A stretch of 32,000 bases of DNA from Hyperthermus butylicus DSM 5456 (GTDB taxonomy: Archaea; Thermoproteota; Thermoprotei_A; Sulfolobales; Pyrodictiaceae). The notes beneath the pieces are model-generated. The model had not been told where the DNA came from, ran no database searches, and saw only the letters and a program-made list of their open reading frames with translations. The position numbers and the translations under genes are program-made. Positions 5,189 to 23,141 of the stretch are shown piece after piece; the stretch's first letter is position 1, and every line of letters starts with the position of its first letter. The stretch spans positions 300,001 to 332,000 of the forward strand of contig NC_008818.1 in NCBI RefSeq assembly GCF_000015145.1, given 5' to 3'.

Positions 5189-5905
5189 ATGAACACCGGT
5201 TCTCAGGGAGAGGTGCACCCGCATATGGTTAAAGCCGTCCGGTTCCTTGGAAAGGACATAATCAAGGAGAATGCACGGCTTGCAGAGAGGCTCCGGAAGC
5301 TCTACGACGAGGCTGGTGTAACTGTCTATGAGTTCCTCGGGGGTCCAGGCAGCGGAAAGACCAGTGTTATAGAGAGACTCGTGGAGAAGATGCTCGAGGA
5401 GTACCGGCCCGAGGAGATAGCCTACATAGGCGGCGATATAGCAACAACACTTGACACCGAGAGGATAGCCAGATACGGTGTAAGACACGTACAGATCAAT
5501 ACTGGTGGCACATGCCACCTAGAAGTCCCCCATGTTGAGGCGGCGATAAAGGCACTAGGGGGCTCCGAGGCTCTCCACAAGCTCCGCATAATGATAATAG
5601 AGAATGTTGGGAACCTCATATGCCCATTTAACTTCCCCCTCGGAGCCCATGCAAGAATAATGGTGGCCGATGTCACTGAGGGCGAGGACAAGTTTGTAAA
5701 GCATCCGCTCAGCACGAAGGTGAGCGATGTCATAGTAATAAACAAGGTTGACCTTGCACCCATAGTGGGTGTAAACCTCGAGAAGATGGTCAGCGATGCC
5801 CGCACCCTAAACCCCAAAGCGCCAATAGTGCTTGCCAGCGCGAAGACAGGGCAGGGCATTGACGAGCTATACCGTGTGCTCAAAAAGTTTATGGTGAGGA
5901 GCTAG
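5189..5905 (+). CDS. hypB: Hydrogenase nickel-incorporation GTPase HypB
   Basis: 238 aa. P-loop GGPGSGKTS, ENVGNLICP and INKVDL motifs match the G3E (HypB/UreG/CobW) GTPases. hypA follows immediately. Confidence 0.9.
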   Translation: MNTGSQGEVHPHMVKAVRFLGKDIIKENARLAERLRKLYDEAGVTVYEFLGGPGSGKTSVIERLVEKMLEEYRPEEIAYIGGDIATTLDTERIARYGVRHVQINTGGTCHLEVPHVEAAIKALGGSEALHKLRIMIIENVGNLICPFNFPLGAHARIMVADVTEGEDKFVKHPLSTKVSDVIVINKVDLAPIVGVNLEKMVSDARTLNPKAPIVLASAKTGQGIDELYRVLKKFMVRS

Positions 5906-5907
5906 CC

Positions 5908-6342
5908 TTGCACGAGACAAGTATTGCCCTCAGCATACTTGCAGCAGTGGAGGATGTTTTCCGTTCCACACCTGGCGCTCGTAGGGTCGAGAAGATACGG
6001 ATACGCGTTGGGATGCTAAGCCTCGTGGATCCCGAGGCGCTAAGGTTTGCACTAAGCGTAGTATCCCGCGACACTCCTGCGGAGAACGCTGAGGTAGAGA
6101 TTGAGACTGTGAGGCCCCGGTTTCGCTGTCCCCACTGCGGCTACGAGTGGGAGGTAGGTGACGAGGACGTCAAAAGGATAGCTGACGATCCTATGCTCGC
6201 CACGCTTGTCCACATACACCCCGACGTTGTAGTCAAGTACCTCCGGTGCCCGCGCTGTGGCAGCACCGATGTGGAGATAGTTGAGGGGAAGGGTGTAGTG
6301 CTGCACAGCGTAGTCATAGAGACAGACGAGGAAAAGGGGTAG
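5908..6342 (+). CDS. hypA: Hydrogenase nickel-insertion protein HypA
   Basis: The N-terminus MHETSIALSI carries the MHE Ni-binding motif. Two CxxC pairs (CPHCG ... CPRCG) form the Zn site. The 144-aa length reflects a long insert between the CxxC pairs, as in some archaeal HypA proteins. TTG start 2 nt after the hypB stop. Confidence 0.9.
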   Translation: MHETSIALSILAAVEDVFRSTPGARRVEKIRIRVGMLSLVDPEALRFALSVVSRDTPAENAEVEIETVRPRFRCPHCGYEWEVGDEDVKRIADDPMLATLVHIHPDVVVKYLRCPRCGSTDVEIVEGKGVVLHSVVIETDEEKG

Positions 6343-14804: not shown

Positions 14805-16400
14805 CTATCTTGTGAGGCGCCTTGAGGCTGTATATGATGCTGCTATGGCTGTAAGGCTTAGCACCTCGAGCATGAGTGCTACCGCCGAGGCTTCGGGTAA
14901 GTAGCGGCCTGCACCGTAGAGCTTGTAGACTAGGACTGTGAGGCTCCACGTGCTCGGCACGGATACCACTATGCTTGCGCCAAACTCTCCGAGGCTCGCT
15001 GCCGCCGCTAGGCCCGCAGCCATCATGGCTGCTGGTAGTGCTGCTGCCAGCCAGTGACGGAGGAAGGCTAGGCCGCGGAGCCCCATGAGCAGCATCGTCT
15101 CTACAACCTCGCGGGGCATCCTTTCCCATGCAGTGGCGAGGCTCCGGCCTGCCAGGGGTAGTGCCGCCGCCGTGTGTGCAACAACTATGAGGACTCTCGA
15201 GGCTGCATCTACTCCCATGTGGGCTGCTAGCGGTTTAAAGTAGGCTATTGTCGCGGCGACACCATAGGCTACCGGTGCTACCGCGATCAGCGAGAGTGTG
15301 CCCACGGCTAGGGCACGGCTGGCCGAGGCAGCAACACCGAGCGCTAGGGAGATGAATATTGTAGCTGTGGCGTAGAGGAGGCTATTGCCTATTGCGCCGG
15401 CTAGGCCTGGCCCTCTACCAGCCAGCTCTGCCAGCAATGCCGAGTTGGCCCTAGAGGCCTCCAGGGCTAGGGCCGCCATGGGTGCGTATAGGTAGGCTAT
15501 TACAGCTACAGGGTATGCCACGGCAAACACCTTGCCGGCGCCGCGAGGCTCTATGAGGCCAGCTCCGCGGGCTGCGAGGGGGAGAGCTGCAAGGCCCCTC
15601 GCCAGCCGGAGCACCGTGGCCGACAAGAGCGCGGCGAGGCCCAGCTCAGCGACCGCTAATAGTGCTGCTAGGCCGCGGAGGCTGGGAAACCCGTAGTAGA
15701 GCGTGTAGAGCCACGCCTCGAGCGTGTAGTAGCGGTAGGCTGCACCCTCAACGAGGAGGGGCCCGGCGCTCGCGAAGGAGTAGAGGAAGGCTACCGCCCA
15801 GGCATAGATTGCTGCACGGGCCGTCGCGGGTATGAGGAGCCGGAGCCAGAGCCGAGGGCCGTGGAGGCCTAGGAGGAGGCTTTGCTCCACCACGCTCTTC
15901 TCGACAGAGGCTGCAGCCGCAGCGGTGAGCGCCGCGGCGAGGCCTATGTTGAAGTAACTGTGCAGTGCTAGGACGCCCGTCCACCCCTGGGCCATGAAGT
16001 GTAGCTGTGGGAGGCTTCCGCCCAGCAGGCCGCCTGGCCCGTAGAGGCTCCTGAGTCCCAGAGCAACCACGACCACCGGGGACATGAACGGGGCCAAGCT
16101 AGCGACAACAGCAGCCCTCGCGGAGCGCGAGCGGTAGAACCCAGCGAGCACGCCTAGAGGCCATCCCGCGAGGATGGCTAGGCTGGCGCTGAGAGCTGCC
16201 TGGAGGAGGGTCCAGCCCAGCACCCAGGATAGCTTGAACGGTGGCTCCCAGCGTGGGGGCCAGGAGTAGGCTAGGGAGATGAAAATAGGGGCTGTATAGA
16301 CGGCGACGGTTAGCCAGGCGGCTAGCGCTAGTAGCCACCATAGGCGGCCGAGGGGGTTCCAGGCTAGCCCCCAGCTATGCTGAGCCAATCCTTCAGCCAC
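14805..16400 (-). CDS. Fused double-domain ABC permease (FbpB/ThiP-type, Fe3+/thiamine family)
   Basis: 531 aa, very hydrophobic and Ala/Leu-rich. The size and two repeated permease halves are typical of CysTW-type iron(III)/thiamine permeases. It overlaps the upstream binding-protein gene. Confidence 0.75.
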   Translation of the reverse strand: MAEGLAQHSWGLAWNPLGRLWWLLALAAWLTVAVYTAPIFISLAYSWPPRWEPPFKLSWVLGWTLLQAALSASLAILAGWPLGVLAGFYRSRSARAAVVASLAPFMSPVVVVALGLRSLYGPGGLLGGSLPQLHFMAQGWTGVLALHSYFNIGLAAALTAAAAASVEKSVVEQSLLLGLHGPRLWLRLLIPATARAAIYAWAVAFLYSFASAGPLLVEGAAYRYYTLEAWLYTLYYGFPSLRGLAALLAVAELGLAALLSATVLRLARGLAALPLAARGAGLIEPRGAGKVFAVAYPVAVIAYLYAPMAALALEASRANSALLAELAGRGPGLAGAIGNSLLYATATIFISLALGVAASASRALAVGTLSLIAVAPVAYGVAATIAYFKPLAAHMGVDAASRVLIVVAHTAAALPLAGRSLATAWERMPREVVETMLLMGLRGLAFLRHWLAAALPAAMMAAGLAAAASLGEFGASIVVSVPSTWSLTVLVYKLYGAGRYLPEASAVALMLEVLSLTAIAASYTASRRLTR

Positions 16401-17623
16401 ACCTCGAGGGACTCGTATATCTCGTCTGGCGGTAGAACACTGTTAGCCATGCCGTCCACGTCTTTGGCCGTAAGCGCGTACTTGTAGAAGCTCGGCAGGC
16501 TAACATCCACCGCTGGGAACATCCACTGGCTTGCCGGTATCTCGCGCTGCACCTCCTCGCTGAGCAGCCAGTCCACAAACTTCTTGGCAGCATCAAGCTC
16601 TGCACCACGTATAATCGCGACGCCCTCGACCTGCATCCAGCCGAGCCTCTTCCCACCCGCTGCTAGCACCGTGGCGTTAACCGAGGGCTCCTCAGCGCCA
16701 CCCTCCTTGGCGCTGTACCAGGCGCTGTATGCAGGGTCGGTGCCATAGCTTACAACTATGGCTCTGGGACTGCCCTCCCTCAAGAACTCGTCGTACGCAC
16801 TACCCCAGCTAGGCGCGATCATCATGCCATTCCCTACGAGCTGGCGCCATAGCTCCTTCCAGTCCCTCCCCTCAAGCCTCGATAGGGCCATAGTGTAGAG
16901 GAGGAAGTTAAGCCCCGTACTACTCTTGGTCGGGTCCTCGCCCACAATACGCGGTGCAAGCTTCACTAGCTCGTCGAGGGTTACACCGTCGCGGAGCATA
17001 GCTAGCTCCTCCTCGGTCAGCCGGGATGGGTCATAGACCAGTGCTATCAATCCATAGTCTATCGGCGTCGCACAATGATCCGGGTCAAGCGCATTGGCAA
17101 CCTCCAGGGGAGCACTGGGCGACAGATAGCACACAACCGCGTTATGCTTCTTCAGCTCCTGCAGCAAGATGGGATCAATACCTATCACAACGTCTGCCGT
17201 CTCCACTCCCTGGTCCAGCTCGTTCAGCACCTGGGTAACCATCTGCCTAGCACCGTCAAACCGGTATATCACCACGTCTATCCCAGTCTCGTTCTCGAAG
17301 CGCTGGACAAGCTTGTCGAAAAGCTCCTCATCCTCACCCCACGCCATAAAATCATCATAAGTGTAGACAACAAGCTTAACCGGCTTAGGGGTTATAGCTT
17401 GTCGTATCGGGCGTGAGTTTACAGTGGTGCCCGGGGATGGCTCTTCCAGGGTGTTAGGGTAGCTGTTATTGGTGCTGGTAAGGTTGGTTTTGCTATTGCT
17501 CGTTCCCTCGCCAACGCCACTACGCTGATAGGACACGTAGACCGCGAGCGCAGCCACAAGGAGAATTGCCAGAACCCCCGCTAGGAAGTAGACCGCCCTA
17601 CCCGTCACACCTAGCCACCCCAA
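16364..17623 (-). CDS. ABC solute-binding protein, Fe3+/thiamine (AfuA/TbpA)-like, membrane-anchored
   Basis: 419 aa. It has an N-terminal anchor and an S/T/N linker. The mature domain contains VKLVVYTYDDF, DVVIGIDPILLQELKK and GVAIIRGAELDAAKKFVDWLLSEEVQ, typical of PBP2 iron/thiamine binders. Confidence 0.75.
   Translation of the reverse strand: MGWLGVTGRAVYFLAGVLAILLVAALAVYVSYQRSGVGEGTSNSKTNLTSTNNSYPNTLEEPSPGTTVNSRPIRQAITPKPVKLVVYTYDDFMAWGEDEELFDKLVQRFENETGIDVVIYRFDGARQMVTQVLNELDQGVETADVVIGIDPILLQELKKHNAVVCYLSPSAPLEVANALDPDHCATPIDYGLIALVYDPSRLTEEELAMLRDGVTLDELVKLAPRIVGEDPTKSSTGLNFLLYTMALSRLEGRDWKELWRQLVGNGMMIAPSWGSAYDEFLREGSPRAIVVSYGTDPAYSAWYSAKEGGAEEPSVNATVLAAGGKRLGWMQVEGVAIIRGAELDAAKKFVDWLLSEEVQREIPASQWMFPAVDVSLPSFYKYALTAKDVDGMANSVLPPDEIYESLEVWLKDWLSIAGG
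17385..17505. repeat. Inverted-repeat copy A (reverse complement of 20804-20923)
   Basis: Hand base-by-base alignment found one substitution (17441) and one G-run indel (G4 at 17388-17391). This copy lies inside the SBP linker-coding region. Confidence 0.9.
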
Positions 17624-18603
17624 GCTGGCAATAACAAAGTGATAGGGGGGTCAATAACCCTCTCCTAGGCAAGAAGTGGGCCAGAAGTACCTCCCTAACA
17701 ACATCAACGAGTAACCAATACCACCTCCTTGACGCTGCACCTATGCCGCTCTTGCAGAGCAGTGTACGCATAAAACCAGTCTCATGATAATAAGGCCTAC
17801 CAAGTCTAGCATCTAGCCTTCTCATTTGCCCCCATTGTAGGCATACTCTATGACCTCCTTCTGATTAGTGTAGTGAGCGTAGCGGCTAGACAGCAAGGCA
17901 TGTACATACACTAACGTTATAGCGACACGATTATAATAGTTATTTCGTGATGGACAGCCCTGAAGGATAGAAGATGAACTACACTATGCTATGCTTCTCC
18001 AACACTCTGCAGCTGCCTTGCCTCTCCCGCCGAGATGGTGGAGGCGGGAGGCACTCGTCTACTTTAACGGAGCAGCAATGAATGTAGCTGCTAGCGTAAC
18101 CCACATCACCGCCAAGAGGCTATGCCTCGTTCTATCAGCATGTCTATCCTTTCCTCAACCTCTGCTATCCGTCTCTCCAACTTTTCCTCAAGCCTCTCCA
18201 TCCTCCCTGACCGCTATTTTTGCTATAGAGCACGTTTAGCACGGCTATCAGCAGCCCCCGACCACGATGCACTTCCGGTACTAGTGCTCTCGGATGAGCT
18301 TCTAGCGTTACTCCAGCTTCTCGCCTAGCTCCTAGCTCCCGGAGAAGCTGCCCGGTAAAACCCAACACCTAGAACCCTGCCCCGAAGAAGGGATCGCAAT
18401 GCTACCGTATCTTGTTGAGGCTATCGTGGAGGCCGGTGGGATCCTGCAAGCCCTCCGAGGATGGTTTGACGCGTCTGCTGGCTGTGAGAATTAGCAATCA
18501 ACCCTTCCTGGCTAGCTCACTTTGGGGTAGACCTCCTCTATGGTCATGGGCGGAAGACTGTATTAGTACTCCGTACGTGTGTCTACAGTTGGTGTCTACG
18601 GGT

Positions 18604-18826
18604 TTGCCTACGGTTGTTATTAGTGTGCGGGTAGGGAGGGAGGTTAGGGAGAAGCTTGAGAAGGCTGGGATCGGTATCGGCGAGGCTATTAGAGTGTACT
18701 TGGAGTAGCTGCCTGGAAAAATAGAGCCGAAAGAGCAATCAGTAAAGTGAGCCAGTTGCTTGCCTCTGTTAAGTCTACTGTGCTAGGGTTTGCTTCTAGG
18801 AGCATGAGGGAGGGCCATGAGGGTAC
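18604..18826 (+). pseudogene. Decayed ribbon-helix-helix antitoxin-like gene (in-frame TAG plus frame change)
   Basis: From TTG at 18604 the sequence reads MPTVVISVRVGREVREKLEKAGIGIGEAIRVYLE*. This is the RHH N-terminus typical of archaeal VapB-type antitoxins. A shifted frame continues VSQLLASVKSTVLGFASRSMREGHEG. No cognate toxin follows. Confidence 0.35.
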
Positions 18827-18862
18827 TTCACAAGTCTTGCCTGGCTTCCAGGCTACTGGTTC

Positions 18863-20041
18863 GTGGCGAGGGCTGACCCGGTCTTGGGGCGCTGTCTGCT
18901 CTGCGGGCGCGAGGGGCTTGTAGCCTCCTCTATCGGCGTCTGCGCCGAGTGTCTGCGCCAGCATCCTGGGGAGGCCCTGGAGCTTGTTTGGAGCCGGAGG
19001 GCCCGGTGGAGGAGAGAGCTTGGGTTACCGCCCGAACCACCCAGGGACCCTAGTGGTGTTCCGTGCAGGCTATGCGTTAACGAGTGCAGGATACCACCTG
19101 GTGGCCGTGGCTACTGCGGCATCTGGGCCAACCGCGGCGGAAGGCTCGAGCCGATAACCGGCCGTGGCAGGTTGGCTGTCTACACTTACCTCGACCCCCA
19201 CCCAACAAACTGTGTCGCTGAACCCGTCTGCCCAGCCAGCACGTCGAGGGGCTATCCACGGTACACGTTTACCCGGGGCGTTGAGAAGGGCTACTATAAC
19301 CTAGCCGTGTTTATGGCTGGGTGCCCGCTCGACTGCATTTTCTGCCAGAACTGGGAGCACAAAACGATGATAGCCCACGGCAGGATAGCAGCTAGGTACG
19401 TGATGAGTGTGGAGAAGCTTGTAGAGGAGGCTCTCAACCCGAGGGTGACATGTGTCTGCTACTTCGGAGGGGACCCAACACCATACATGCCCATGCTGAT
19501 AGAAGCCTCAAGGAGGATCCTTGAAGAGGCCAGAAAGAAGGGTCAATGGCCTAAAAGGATTTGCTGGGAGACCGACGGCCTGGCAAACCCCGCTGTCCTT
19601 CGGCAAGCCGCGAGGCTGAGCCTGGAGAGTGGCGGCATAGTGAAGATTGACTGGAAGGCCTGGACACCAAGCATATACGAGGCGCTAACCGGCGTGGACG
19701 GCGCCAAGGCTGTTGAGAGGTTGAAGGAGAATACTAGGATGCTAGCCGAGATGGCTGCTGAGAGGCCGGAACCACCGCTCCTCGTGGTCAGCATACTACT
19801 CGTACCGGGCTACGTTGATGCTAGGGAGGTCCGGGGTATAGCGGGCTACGTGGCAGGCCTCATGGAGGAGTATGGCGTGAACATACCCGTTGTCCTGCTA
19901 GCATTCCACCCCGACTACCTTGCCAGGGACCTGCCGCCAACCAGCCGCAGACACGCCGCCGAGGCGAGAAAAGCCGTGCTCGAGGCAGGCGTGAAAGAGG
20001 TCTACATCGGGAACATCTGGCTGCTGGGAGACTACTATTAG
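18863..20041 (+). CDS. Radical SAM enzyme, pyruvate formate-lyase-activase-like, with an extra N-terminal Cys-rich region
   Basis: The CxxxCxxC motif is GCPLDCIFCQNW. Upstream lie CLLCG...CAEC (zinc-ribbon-like) and CRLCVNEC...YCGIW (auxiliary cluster-like). 392 aa, GTG start. Confidence 0.8.
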   Translation: MARADPVLGRCLLCGREGLVASSIGVCAECLRQHPGEALELVWSRRARWRRELGLPPEPPRDPSGVPCRLCVNECRIPPGGRGYCGIWANRGGRLEPITGRGRLAVYTYLDPHPTNCVAEPVCPASTSRGYPRYTFTRGVEKGYYNLAVFMAGCPLDCIFCQNWEHKTMIAHGRIAARYVMSVEKLVEEALNPRVTCVCYFGGDPTPYMPMLIEASRRILEEARKKGQWPKRICWETDGLANPAVLRQAARLSLESGGIVKIDWKAWTPSIYEALTGVDGAKAVERLKENTRMLAEMAAERPEPPLLVVSILLVPGYVDAREVRGIAGYVAGLMEEYGVNIPVVLLAFHPDYLARDLPPTSRRHAAEARKAVLEAGVKEVYIGNIWLLGDYY

Positions 20042-20781
20042 TCGCTGCCGCCCAGGCTATTATCCAGCATGGACGCTATCTCCCGCGCTATCTCGCCCGC
20101 CCTCAACGTAGCATCACGAACGGCATCGATCACAGCCGACTTGAACCCCCTGCTCTCGAGGGTCCGAATAGCAGCTATCGTAGTACCCGCCGGCGTTATA
20201 ACCTCGTCCCTGAGAACGCCGGGGTGCACATCAGGGTTCTCGAGCAAGTACCTCGCGGTAGACTCGAGAAGCTCCGCCGCCACCCTCCGGGCAATACTCC
20301 TCGGAAGCCCAACAGCCAGCGCTGCCAGCACGAGCGCGTCGAGAAACTCTGCGACCAGCGCTGGCCCCGACCCGGCCACCGCCGTCCATGCATCAATGAA
20401 CTCCTCCGGGACATCGTACACCGTGCCAAAGCAGGAAAGGGCCCTCCTCACGAGCCCGTAGTGCCTCGCGTTGGGCGGAGAGTAGAGGGCTGTGAGGCTC
20501 CTCCCAACCCGTATGTTCAAGTTGGGCATAGCGCGGTAGACCTCAGCACCCTTCAGCACCTTCTGTAGGAGCGAAACAGGCACACCAGCCATCACAGAGA
20601 CGACCGGCTTGCCAGCAACAATACCCCCTATGTCACGGGCAACAATGGGGAAGTGGTAGGGCTTGACACTTATGAACACCAGGTCTGCACTCTCGACAGC
20701 ACACCGGTTACAACTGGTAGCCTCCAACCCAGCCTCACGGAGCAACACAAGCCTCTCCTGGCTGCGAGCCGTCGCAACCAC
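20038..20781 (-). CDS. proC: Pyrroline-5-carboxylate reductase; the true N-terminus lies upstream of the track start
   Basis: The body matches P5CR (..VKPYHFPIVARDI.., ..RAMPNLNIRVGRSLTALY.., ..VITPAGTTIAAIRTLE..). The dinucleotide-binding motif VRVAVIGAGKVGFAIARSL is encoded in frame at 20853-20797 with no ATG, GTG or TTG upstream of it. The 3' end overlaps the convergent radical SAM gene by 4 nt. Confidence 0.85.
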   Translation of the reverse strand: MVATARSQERLVLLREAGLEATSCNRCAVESADLVFISVKPYHFPIVARDIGGIVAGKPVVSVMAGVPVSLLQKVLKGAEVYRAMPNLNIRVGRSLTALYSPPNARHYGLVRRALSCFGTVYDVPEEFIDAWTAVAGSGPALVAEFLDALVLAALAVGLPRSIARRVAAELLESTARYLLENPDVHPGVLRDEVITPAGTTIAAIRTLESRGFKSAVIDAVRDATLRAGEIAREIASMLDNSLGGSD

Positions 20782-20803
20782 AGACGCGCCACAGCCACGC
20801 AGA

Positions 20804-20923
20804 GAACGAGCAATAGCAAAACCAACCTTACCAGCACCAATAACAGCTACCCTAACACCCTGGAAGACCCATCCCCGGGCACCACTGTAAACTCACGCCC
20901 GATACGACAAGCTATAACCCTAA
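20804..20923. repeat. Inverted-repeat copy B (reverse complement of 17385-17505)
   Basis: Same alignment as copy A. This copy covers the Rossmann-motif coding 5' end and immediate upstream of proC. Confidence 0.9.
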
Positions 20924-21281: not shown

Positions 21282-21350
21282 GGGGCTGTGACGAACCAGG
21301 GATTATGCCTACCCTTGTGGGGTGACGAGTCCAGCCGAGCCCTGAGCCCC
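21282..21350 (+). ncRNA. Candidate non-canonical C/D box sRNA (weak)
   Basis: A terminal stem GGGGC (21282-86) / GCCCC (21346-50) flanks GTGACGA (21288-94, C-like) and CTGA (21342-45, D). A second GTGACGA (21322-28, C'-like) lies 13 nt before the D box. Both C boxes have C instead of U at position 5, and no D' box is evident. Confidence 0.2.
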
Positions 21351-21520
21351 AAACGATCCACTGTACAACTCAGAGCGTACAACTGTACCTAAGACACCGA
21401 TTTTAGTTTAATACTTTATGAACAGCCAAAAGGTTTAAAACTATATTACAGCTAACATATCTTATCGGTACACGAGCAGATAAACCCAAGGTAAAATATG
21501 CATAGAGGGGTGCATCCTAC

Positions 21521-21991
21521 ATGAAAATACGCGCAATTAGCCCCGTAATAGCCACCGTAATCATCCTAGCAGTAACAGTAGCAATAGCAATAGCAGTCAT
21601 CGGCTGGATTACCGGACTATTCGGCGCAACAACAAGCGGCACAGAGCAACTGATAATTTATCCGGATTCCAAGCTATATTGCTATACATCTAGTGCAACA
21701 GCTATTCTACATATAATGAACAAGGGTACAGCAGATTCAGTAATCGATAAGATTGAGATTGCAGGCCTTGGAACAACAGATAGCTTCACTGTGAATGGAC
21801 AAACTGTGGACGAGTACACGCTAACACGCGGTTCAGATGCGACAATAGAAGCTACCATAAGTAGCACTTGTACTGCTGGAGCATCCTACCAAGTAATCGT
21901 CTATACGAAAAGCGGGTATATGGTAAGTACTGTGATAGTTGCAGAAACGGGTTCACAACCAAGTTCACAAGGTACATCAACGCAAGTATGA
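21521..21991 (+). CDS. Archaeal type IV pilin-like protein (class III signal peptide, DUF1628-type N-terminus)
   Basis: The N-terminus MKIRAISPVIATVIILAVTVAIAIAVIGWITGLFG matches the prepilin-peptidase processed motif (K/R)-A-(I/L)-S-P-V-I-A-T-V-(I/L)-(I/L). The C-terminal domain is Ser/Thr-rich. The local context is low-GC. Confidence 0.75.
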   Translation: MKIRAISPVIATVIILAVTVAIAIAVIGWITGLFGATTSGTEQLIIYPDSKLYCYTSSATAILHIMNKGTADSVIDKIEIAGLGTTDSFTVNGQTVDEYTLTRGSDATIEATISSTCTAGASYQVIVYTKSGYMVSTVIVAETGSQPSSQGTSTQV

Positions 21992-22076
21992 AGTACCGGA
22001 GTACATAGTACTGCACCCTTCCGCTGATTTTGCACAGAATCAACAATACATTTTTACTTCACATACAACACTATGA

Positions 22077-23141
22077 TCAATGTTCCTTTCTTGCAAGTAT
22101 TATTATTCTTGTTAGGCTTCCGTGTACTCTCATGTAGTGGTGTTCTAGTGGTTTTAGTCCTGCTTGTTCGGTGTATTGTAGGGCTTTTTGTTCGGCCCAG
22201 TGTGGTGCTGCGTATGCTAGGTAGGCTCCTGGTTTGAGTACTCTTGCTGCTTCGTGGAGGAATTGTTCTAGGAGTGTTTCTAGTTTTTTGCCTCTTGTGG
22301 ATACGCTTCTTCCGTAGGGTGGGTCTGTTCCTATGCTCTGTATGCTGTTGTCGCGTAGGGGTAGCTGGGTTGCGTCCCATTGTGCTATGGTGATTATGTA
22401 TTGACTGCCGGGGTATGCTTGGAGGTTTGTTTTGGCTCCGTTGGCTAGTTTGTCTGCTAGCTCGCCGCAGATGGCTGGTATTCCGAGGGTTTGGGCTTCT
22501 AGGGGGAAGCCTCCTGTTCCGCAGAAGGGGTCTAGGTAGGGGCCGGGTGGGGCTGCGCGGGAGAGGTTCAGGAAGAGCCTGGCTAGGCGTGGGTCTAGGC
22601 TGCCTGGATGGAAGAATGGTCTTTTCTGCGGCCTGTGGCTGTCTAGGAGCTTCCTGTCCTGTACTGCTTGCCGTAGGCCCGCGACTGCTGCGCCCTGGGT
22701 TGCTATGATGTGTAGTGTTTTCGTTGGGTTCCGGGGGTCCATGGCGACGCCGCAGCTTCTCACCGCGGCTGTTATCTTTTCGGCTATGAGCCTCGCGGTG
22801 TTGTCTGGTAGCGCTTTCTTGGCGTAGCCGCGTACCCGTGTAAACTCGACCCTTACACGGTCTCCTGGCTCTAGGCTGCTGCATAGGTCTGTTGCTAGCA
22901 GGGAGTCCACAATATCGTCCACCTTTGGCTCGGAGGCTGCCAGGACGAGCCCCGCTTCGTGTATGAGGCCTGCCCTCCACGGTACCCGTTCCACGCTGCT
23001 GCAGTTGCAGGTGAACACTGCGAGCTGGTCGAAGACCTCTACTATCCGGTACCGGTAGCCCTCAGCCTCCAGTATGCCCCGGAGCTCTGCGAGGGGGAGG
23101 GAGGCGTGGAGGCCGCTCAGCAGTGCATAGTAGAGCTTCAC
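22077..23141 (-). CDS. tRNA (guanine-N2)-methyltransferase, Trm-G10/Trm11-type (THUMP-like N-domain + class I MTase)
   Basis: 354 aa. The SAM site is YLDPFCGTGGFPLEA and the catalytic motif is IGTDPPYG. The N-terminus MKLYYALLSGLHASLPLAELRGILEAEG resembles archaeal Trm-G10. Confidence 0.8.
   Translation of the reverse strand: MKLYYALLSGLHASLPLAELRGILEAEGYRYRIVEVFDQLAVFTCNCSSVERVPWRAGLIHEAGLVLAASEPKVDDIVDSLLATDLCSSLEPGDRVRVEFTRVRGYAKKALPDNTARLIAEKITAAVRSCGVAMDPRNPTKTLHIIATQGAAVAGLRQAVQDRKLLDSHRPQKRPFFHPGSLDPRLARLFLNLSRAAPPGPYLDPFCGTGGFPLEAQTLGIPAICGELADKLANGAKTNLQAYPGSQYIITIAQWDATQLPLRDNSIQSIGTDPPYGRSVSTRGKKLETLLEQFLHEAARVLKPGAYLAYAAPHWAEQKALQYTEQAGLKPLEHHYMRVHGSLTRIIILARKEH

Follow-up and report, generated by a model that had tools for sequence, protein, structure and literature searches.

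An antisense copy of the proC 5' region in the linker of a Hyperthermus butylicus binding protein, and a candidate recoding leader at its source

How the membrane tether of a transport protein can come to read, codon for codon, as the antisense of the beginning of another gene is the question raised by a stretch of 32,000 nucleotides from Hyperthermus butylicus DSM 5456 (contig NC_008818.1, positions 300,001 to 332,000; hereafter the window, with position 1 as its first letter). Two genes of this window, one encoding the substrate-binding protein (SBP) of a thiamine ATP-binding cassette (ABC) transporter and the other encoding pyrroline-5-carboxylate reductase (proC), contain a near-identical segment in opposite orientations. 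The evidence set out below makes it very probable that the segment is a templated inverted insertion that passed from proC into the SBP gene within the Hyperthermus lineage. The copied DNA also includes a proC leader whose unusual layout recurs across the Pyrodictiaceae, and which may, more tentatively, be a site of programmed frameshifting. The two genes and the two copies of the segment, referred to as copy A and copy B, are as follows.

16364 to 17623, minus strand: thiamine ABC transporter SBP, a 419-aa open reading frame (ORF) from TTG; the NCBI start is GTG 17608, giving 414 aa
17385 to 17510 (core 17389-17508), plus strand: copy A; its plus strand corresponds to the proC promoter, leader and Rossmann codons in the sense direction, and its minus strand to SBP residues ~39-80
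20038 to 20872, minus strand: proC, pyrroline-5-carboxylate reductase, from the conserved leader ATG to the stop codon, with the GxGxxG codons at 20838-20821
20799 to 20923 (core 20801-20920), minus strand: copy B, the native proC 5' region and donor, assigned from the repeat and the alignment with relatives

The repeat, its recipient and its donor

The ungapped arms of the inverted pair (17389-17508 on the plus strand and 20801-20920) are 120 nt long, match at 118 of 120 positions (98% complementary) and lie 3292 nt apart, and the match extends to 17385-17510 and 20799-20923 when one indel in a G run is admitted. At its outer edge, an additional TTA matches when one G is gapped (GGGG vs GGG). 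An initial reading of the window from its letters and ORF translations (the sequence-only reading) had described 17385-17505 as the reverse complement of 20804-20923 with one substitution and one G-run indel, and the repeat scan and a MAFFT alignment concur with this description: the substitution is found inside the repeat, where 17441 (C) faces 20868 (G on the minus strand), and the ungapped core adds a second mismatch at 17506/20803, three bases from the inner end. Self-comparison recovers a single inverted pair at the place claimed, and a scan of the whole 32-kb window found no other repeat of at least 30 nt, direct or inverted. Two 41-mers, one from each half of the repeat, occur exactly twice each in the window, where 100 dinucleotide shuffles give an expectation of zero.

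The recipient gene is intact. Its ORF matches entry P0001, the thiamine ABC transporter SBP of H. butylicus, at 100% identity, compares with its orthologues at 99% coverage and contains SBP_bac_1/8 domains (PF01547/PF13416) over residues 100-362. The encoded protein consists of an anchor at residues ~6-30, a linker at residues ~31-81 and a mature domain that begins at KPVKLVVYTYDDF, and it thus has the hydrophobic anchor, low-complexity linker, SBP domain and neighbouring permease of a membrane-anchored archaeal thiamine-type SBP. The minus strand of copy A reads EGTSNSKTNLTSTNNSYPNTLEEPSPGTTVNSRPIRQAITP within this 419-aa ORF and is placed precisely where the conserved membrane anchor gives way to the conserved KPVKL-VY-Y-DF motif that opens the mature domain. 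Approximately 42 of the ~50 linker residues originate from copy A, and just SYQRSGVG upstream and KPVKL downstream match the relatives. Past its inner end the sequence continues as ..AIARSLANATTLIGH.., which bears no similarity to proC, and the flanks on both sides are homologous to SBP orthologues.

The peptide encoded by copy A is hydrophilic, rich in Ser, Thr, Asn and Pro, and contains two N-x-S/T sequons (NLT and NNS). Of the three antisense frames of the segment, the single open one, spanning ~40 codons, is the frame used by the SBP, and it is in codon register with proC. The initial reading fared well on these points: its translations of both copies were reproduced from the sequence, its two sequons are present in the translated peptide, its placement of the peptide between anchor and mature domain agrees with the orthologue alignment and the SBP translation, and its argument that Gly and Ala codons read in antisense give Thr and Ser is correct for a linker frame that is the in-register antisense of the proC frame. 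Its suggestion that the linker could be specific to one lineage was borne out by the 18 other SBP orthologues, none of which has a similar linker.

All 18 share the anchor (M.SR..Y..AG....LA....Y) and the start of the mature domain (K..KL.VY.Y.DFMAWG), and join them through unrelated Thr/Ala/Val/Pro-rich linkers of ~20-80 residues that differ greatly in length. The insert is absent from the DNA of the three closest relatives (contigs L001, L025 and L026), the L001 and L025 SBPs being 70-73% identical to that of H. butylicus, and the SBP cluster with the H. butylicus linker has a single member in a database of 5.8 billion proteins. The H. butylicus protein therefore has the same hydrophobic N-terminal anchor, hydrophilic low-complexity tether and SBP fold as other archaeal membrane-anchored SBPs. 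In contrast to the Thr/Ala/Val/Pro runs of its orthologues, its tether is a unique Ser/Asn/Thr/Pro sequence that traces back to the opposite strand of the promoter and initial codons of another gene.

Copy B, conversely, is an ordinary part of proC. Its minus strand reads ..VFQGVRVAVIGAGKVGFAIARSLRGCGASVVATARS.. in frame with the proC body and continues unbroken as ..AIARSLRGCGASVVATARS.., and the 284-codon open frame matches PF03807 (F420_oxidored) at residues 14-103, beginning at RVAVIG, and PF14748 (P5CR_dimer) at residues 163-267. Both the Pfam match and the translation agree with the earlier identification of this sequence as the GxGxxG N-terminus of ProC. The GenBank protein of DSM 5456 (P0121; 20038-20781, 247 aa), with which the proC body shows 100% identity, begins only after the repeat and does not include the GxGxxG motif. 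From the TATA region to the VAVIGxGK codons, copy B corresponds base for base to the 5' region of proC in Pyrofollis japonicus (L002) and in L001, L003, L020, L021 and L024, and a TATA-like box is found 45-48 nt upstream of a conserved ATG in the relatives' proC genes, in metagenomic lineages as well as in Pyrofollis japonicus. Three elements of copy B lie ahead of the Rossmann codons, of which the first is assigned a promoter function from its sequence and position.

20912 to 20917, minus strand: TATA-like box TTATAG, a putative promoter element 45 nt upstream of the leader ATG, its position conserved in relatives
20883 to 20880, minus strand: Shine-Dalgarno (SD)-like GGTG upstream of the leader ATG
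20852 to 20872, minus strand: leader ORF of seven codons, ATG GGT CTT CCA GGG TGT TAG (MGLPGC, then stop), one base off the proC frame

Approximately 55 of the 120 nt of the repeat correspond to the proC promoter and leader and not to Rossmann codons. The description of the repeat as the Rossmann-coding 5' end of the gene thus holds for the part that includes the GxGxxG codons, while about half of the segment is promoter and leader, and the Rossmann codons have no canonical in-frame start.

Since copy B is homologous to the proC genes of relatives and copy A is absent from the SBP orthologues, copy B is the donor and the SBP copy is derived. The event is young, given that the insert is missing from the relatives and that two or three positions distinguish the copies. 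A degenerate 33-nt pattern of the repeat core gave no matches in genome and metagenome contig collections, which do not contain H. butylicus, and it does match L001-L003 when these are scanned locally. A protein-guided genome scan of the same collections returned neither H. butylicus nor Pyrofollis japonicus and is hence uninformative on both genomes.

The kind of event and its alternatives

The arms of the repeat bound a segment that includes a gene on the opposite strand, and the SBP gene is followed by that of its permease.

18863 to 20041, plus strand: radical SAM gene, within the repeat-bounded segment, its orientation relative to its neighbours as in L001
14805 to 16400, minus strand: ABC permease, overlapping the 3' end of the SBP gene, with the same layout in L001

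The order proC, radical SAM (opposite strand), SBP and permease, together with all orientations, is identical in L001, the closest relative contig, and the far side of proC is syntenic in L003, where a UPF0020 methyltransferase gene and a small ORF are found. Because gene order and orientation equal those of L001, the segment between the arms has not been inverted. An inversion with breakpoint duplication was rejected on this basis, and because every orthologue has the SBP anchor next to the mature domain. Inversions through staggered breaks, as known from Drosophila, leave inverted duplicates at their breakpoints and an intervening segment that is inverted relative to the ancestor; inverted duplicates around a segment are shared with the present locus, but the H. 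butylicus segment is not inverted relative to L001. Copying from a transcript was likewise rejected: the TATA box is part of the copied stretch, and any plausible transcript would begin downstream of it, so the template was DNA.

A templated inverted insertion from proC into the SBP gene accordingly stands as the very probable explanation. In the proposed sequence of steps, ~120-125 nt of the native proC 5' region, from the TATA box to the codons for ..AIARS, would have been copied in reverse 3.3 kb away, probably by a replication template switch or by break repair on a nearby ectopic template. The copy would have landed in the hypervariable linker-coding part of the SBP gene and largely replaced an ancestral Thr/Ala-rich linker. 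Its survival may be understood from the linker being the least constrained part of the gene, nearly free of sequence constraint, and from the antisense frame in proC register being stop-free and encoding a hydrophilic peptide that could serve as a workable tether. We infer the molecular mechanism and the reason for the target site from these features, and the new linker is presumably functional and glycosylated. A homeology-guided choice of site is possible, given that the T/A-rich linker codons ACC, GCA and AGC resemble antisense Gly and Ala codons (GGT, GCT). In local alignments of linkers with antisense proC, L001 and L026 rank in the top 1% of 126-nt windows, with codon-shuffle p values of 0.06, 0.34 and 0.08.

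Four points weigh against this explanation. Microhomology at the junctions is minimal, with 2-3 nt in common past each end (TAA on one side, AG.GAA on the other). The likeness of the relatives' linkers to the antisense proC 5' end is not significantly above that expected from composition. The count of copies covers the 32-kb window of one genome, the single one for the species. Finally, an extra 1.2-kb spacer beside copy A hints that the region may have had other rearrangements and that the event may have been more complex.

The alternative that survives best, though it is itself very unlikely, is an old duplication whose inverted copies have been kept nearly alike by gene conversion. Recombination is possible between inverted repeats of 120 nt, and 98% identity is far above the level of divergence between H. 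butylicus and its nearest known relatives, for which proC synonymous differences are 0.4-0.8. The segment is, however, absent from all 18 other SBPs, including those of L001, L025 and L026, which places the duplication after those splits. Where the sequence-only reading had regarded proC as the source and the SBP copy as a recent antisense capture, both the relatives' proC 5' ends and the 18 insert-free SBPs agree with it; of the two causes that it had offered for the near-identity, a very recent event stands and gene conversion of an old duplication is unlikely, and its notion of a capture holds for the antisense linker, but the copy replaced an ancestral linker instead of merely adding to it.

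There is a slighter chance still that one of the copies arose artificially during cloning or assembly of the reference genome, which derives from a single Sanger-era assembly. A repeat of 120 nt is much shorter than a Sanger read, so that reads would span it. The copies are also non-identical, with two or three differences and an edge indel, which makes a collapsed or chimeric assembly less likely. Through copy A the SBP frame runs open for 40 codons, in the sole open antisense frame and with orthologous SBP sequence on both sides, and copy B is needed for the Rossmann fold of ProC.

Equally improbable is a reading in which the two arms bound an invertible segment, as in a phase-variation-type switch, or have a selected function as a pair. 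The arms flank 3.3 kb that hold the SBP promoter, its anchor codons and the proC body, and recombination between them would keep proC intact and detach the SBP anchor. Moreover, the SBP and proC mRNAs, both transcribed from the minus strand, have ~90-120 nt of near-perfect complementarity (17389-17508 vs 20801-20892), and the duplex between the SBP mRNA and the 5' end of the proC mRNA is predicted to be stable at 95-105 C, with a net free energy of -46 kcal/mol at 95 C and -24 kcal/mol at 105 C. Against this, the neighbouring ORFs include no recombinase gene in or beside the segment, the orientation is that of the relatives, and the arms are ordinary gene sequence that is single-copy in the relatives. 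Least probable of all is a small mobile element of the miniature inverted-repeat transposable element type inserted at both places: there are two inverted copies with sharp ends, but copy B is the orthologue, by sequence as well as by location, of proC 5' ends that are ordinary single-copy DNA in relatives, and it carries the codons of a conserved Rossmann motif, no terminal inverted repeats and no target-site duplications were found at either copy, and there is no third copy in the 32 kb, which together argue that the unit is not mobile.

As a templated inverted insertion, the H. butylicus event is a further case of a known kind of mutation, clean but small. Such mutations, which arise at quasi-palindromes or by template switching at replication forks, are also known from bacteria. 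Short-range template-switch mutations that produce templated inverted insertions have been surveyed in great apes (PMC7954356). They likewise consist of a reverse-complement copy of nearby DNA that lengthens the recipient sequence or takes its place, with the donor left intact, sharp junctions and little or no homology, but they mostly involve tens of bases at tens to hundreds of bases from the donor, compared with ~120 nt over 3.3 kb here. Unlike the events described, the H. butylicus product has been fixed inside an expressed gene, where it encodes ~40 residues.

The proC leader across the Pyrodictiaceae

The donor raises a second question, namely where translation of ProC begins. The H. butylicus proC frame contains no ATG, GTG or TTG from its in-frame stop TGA (20895-20893) as far as the GTG (20781). 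The Pyrofollis japonicus protein (L002, 6001-6732) is annotated as 243 aa from an internal GTG, with the conserved upstream GxGxxG segment omitted. In 10 of 11 Pyrodictiaceae-type lineages an ATG is found one base off the proC frame, with GGG just before it, and opens an ORF of 5-6 residues; in the eleventh lineage (L003), a GTG at the same offset opens a longer ORF (VGLPGCSCGCYWWW, then stop). The ten short leader peptides, each followed by a stop codon, are given below with coordinates where these were recorded.

H. butylicus: MGLPGC
L001 (2289-2309): MRLPGC
L024: MRLPEV
L002, Pyrofollis japonicus (5904-5924): MSLPGA
L020: MSLPRH
L027: MSLPRY
L021: MSLPGR
L048: MRVPPL
L050: MRVPPF
L049: MRVPA

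Codon 4 of the leader is always Pro, with synonymous variation among CCA, CCG and CCT, whereas the overlapping residue of the proC frame varies among Q, R and L. The base after the leader ATG also varies (G, C or A), and in Pyrofollis, L020, L021 and L027 it creates an in-frame TGA right before V-F-Q of the enzyme frame, a stop that has been kept in these four lineages despite near-saturated synonymous sites (pS, the proportion of synonymous differences, 0.5-0.8). Over the 28 codons from V-F-Q to the annotated GTG, the proportion of nonsynonymous differences (pN) is 0.05-0.36 vs a pS of 0.39-0.83, as in the rest of proC. The Rossmann codons are thus under purifying selection, and this part of the protein is evidently translated.

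In-frame GTG or TTG codons are also found upstream of the Rossmann codons in L001, L003, L024, L048 and L050. No such upstream start is present in H. butylicus, which is one base short relative to L001, or in Pyrofollis, which has two in-frame stops, and altogether the enzyme frame is without a usable start in H. butylicus, Pyrofollis japonicus and three metagenomic lineages. Because the offset-ATG layout recurs across lineages, the missing start is not a sequencing slip in H. butylicus, and readings of the gene as a fresh pseudogene or a sequencing error are weakened by this recurrence and by an N-terminal pN much below pS. Read-through of UGA from an in-frame GTG fits L020, L021 and L027 but fails for Pyrofollis, with its two stops, and for H. 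butylicus, with no start; re-initiation after the leader stop finds no consistent in-frame start codon; and a pause at a rare codon does not fit CCA, which is not rare (16.4 per 1000).

Only one mechanism would fit every lineage, namely that ribosomes start at the conserved ATG and then move into the +1 frame, a reading that the comparative sequences suggest and that we regard as somewhat more doubtful than probable. Put in full, and just as tentatively, the 120-mer may represent the complete proC control region, with ProC produced through a +1 frameshift at CUU-CCA during which the codon of the empty A site is that for proline. At the most plausible site, GTCTTCCA, P-site CUU would re-pair on UUC, leaving CCA-Pro as the vacated A-site codon. 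This sequence, CUU followed by CCA, is invariant in the Hyperthermus/Pyrofollis clade, and Pyrodictium types have GUU followed by CCG or CCT. Diverged lineages share a short ORF with a conserved zero-frame start and have the main ORF in the +1 frame. No conserved RNA structure was found around the leader beyond an invariant 4-bp stem (-3.6 kcal/mol).

Autoregulatory +1 frameshifting is known from bacterial prfB (CUU-UGA-C), antizyme and yeast Ty1 and ABP140 (CUU-AGG-C). Like these systems, the proC leader has a short zero-frame ORF that ends a few codons after CUU, a main product in the +1 frame, a G-rich SD-like sequence just upstream and an A-site codon (Pro) that is tied to the product of the pathway. 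It differs from them in that the A-site codon is a sense codon and is not rare, that Pyrodictium types have GUU in place of CUU, that some lineages have in-frame GTG or TTG codons, and that it is known from sequence alone. A 2021 review lists just one demonstrated -1 frameshift and no +1 case among cellular archaeal genes and does not mention proC (PMC8211752).

Neighbourhood and significance

The promoter and leader of proC were duplicated together with its first codons, and two of the duplicated elements on the plus strand of copy A are the following.

17392 to 17397, plus strand: duplicate TATA-like box, a putative promoter element directed antisense into the SBP 5' end and anchor codons, towards the radical SAM gene
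17437 to 17457, plus strand: duplicate leader ORF, ATG GCT CTT CCA GGG TGT TAG, differing from that of copy B only at 17441

Within 17392-17460 (plus strand), the TATA box, SD-like GGTG and leader ATG of proC are all duplicated intact and run in the same direction as the radical SAM gene. From its sequence, this probable promoter could drive an antisense transcript into the SBP gene. The SBP mRNA, for its part, includes a perfect complement to the opening ~90 nt of the presumed proC mRNA (~90-100 nt of pairing with the leader region), the predicted duplex being the one described above as stable at growth temperature.

Beside copy A lies the enlarged spacer mentioned above.

17624 to 18862, no strand: gene-poor spacer of 1.24 kb, partly low in GC, between the divergent SBP and radical SAM genes; 142 nt in L001

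The small ORFs of this spacer gave no Pfam matches. A stretch at ~18620-18660 (VVISVRVGREVREKLEKAGI) shows weak tblastn likeness to a 75-aa VapB-like antitoxin encoded beside a PIN gene in L001, which suggests that it may be a decayed toxin-antitoxin insertion. Upstream of proC, a low-GC island at 21300-22100 (38-46% vs ~60% around it) contains an archaeal type IV pilin-like gene (Pilin_N; 21521-21991) between the UPF0020 methyltransferase gene and proC, in a position that matches the small ORF in L003. Scans of the window with Rfam at gathering thresholds and for tRNAs returned no families and no tRNAs.

With respect to annotation, the SBP is intact, and the ProC proteins given in GenBank are too short in H. 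butylicus (247 aa) as well as in Pyrofollis japonicus (243 aa). The insert itself, for which donor, recipient, direction and outgroups are all known, is a rare and cleanly polarised prokaryotic case of new protein sequence derived from the antisense of another gene's promoter and first codons. It indicates that the tethers of archaeal surface binding proteins are very tolerant, and cautions against reading such linkers as evolved low-complexity sequence. If the proposed frameshift were true, low levels of charged tRNA-Pro would induce the final enzyme in proline synthesis, and proC would be the first case of autoregulatory +1 frameshifting in a cellular archaeal gene. The family-wide leader would then be a testable candidate for amino-acid-sensing recoding in Archaea, and would matter more than the insertion.

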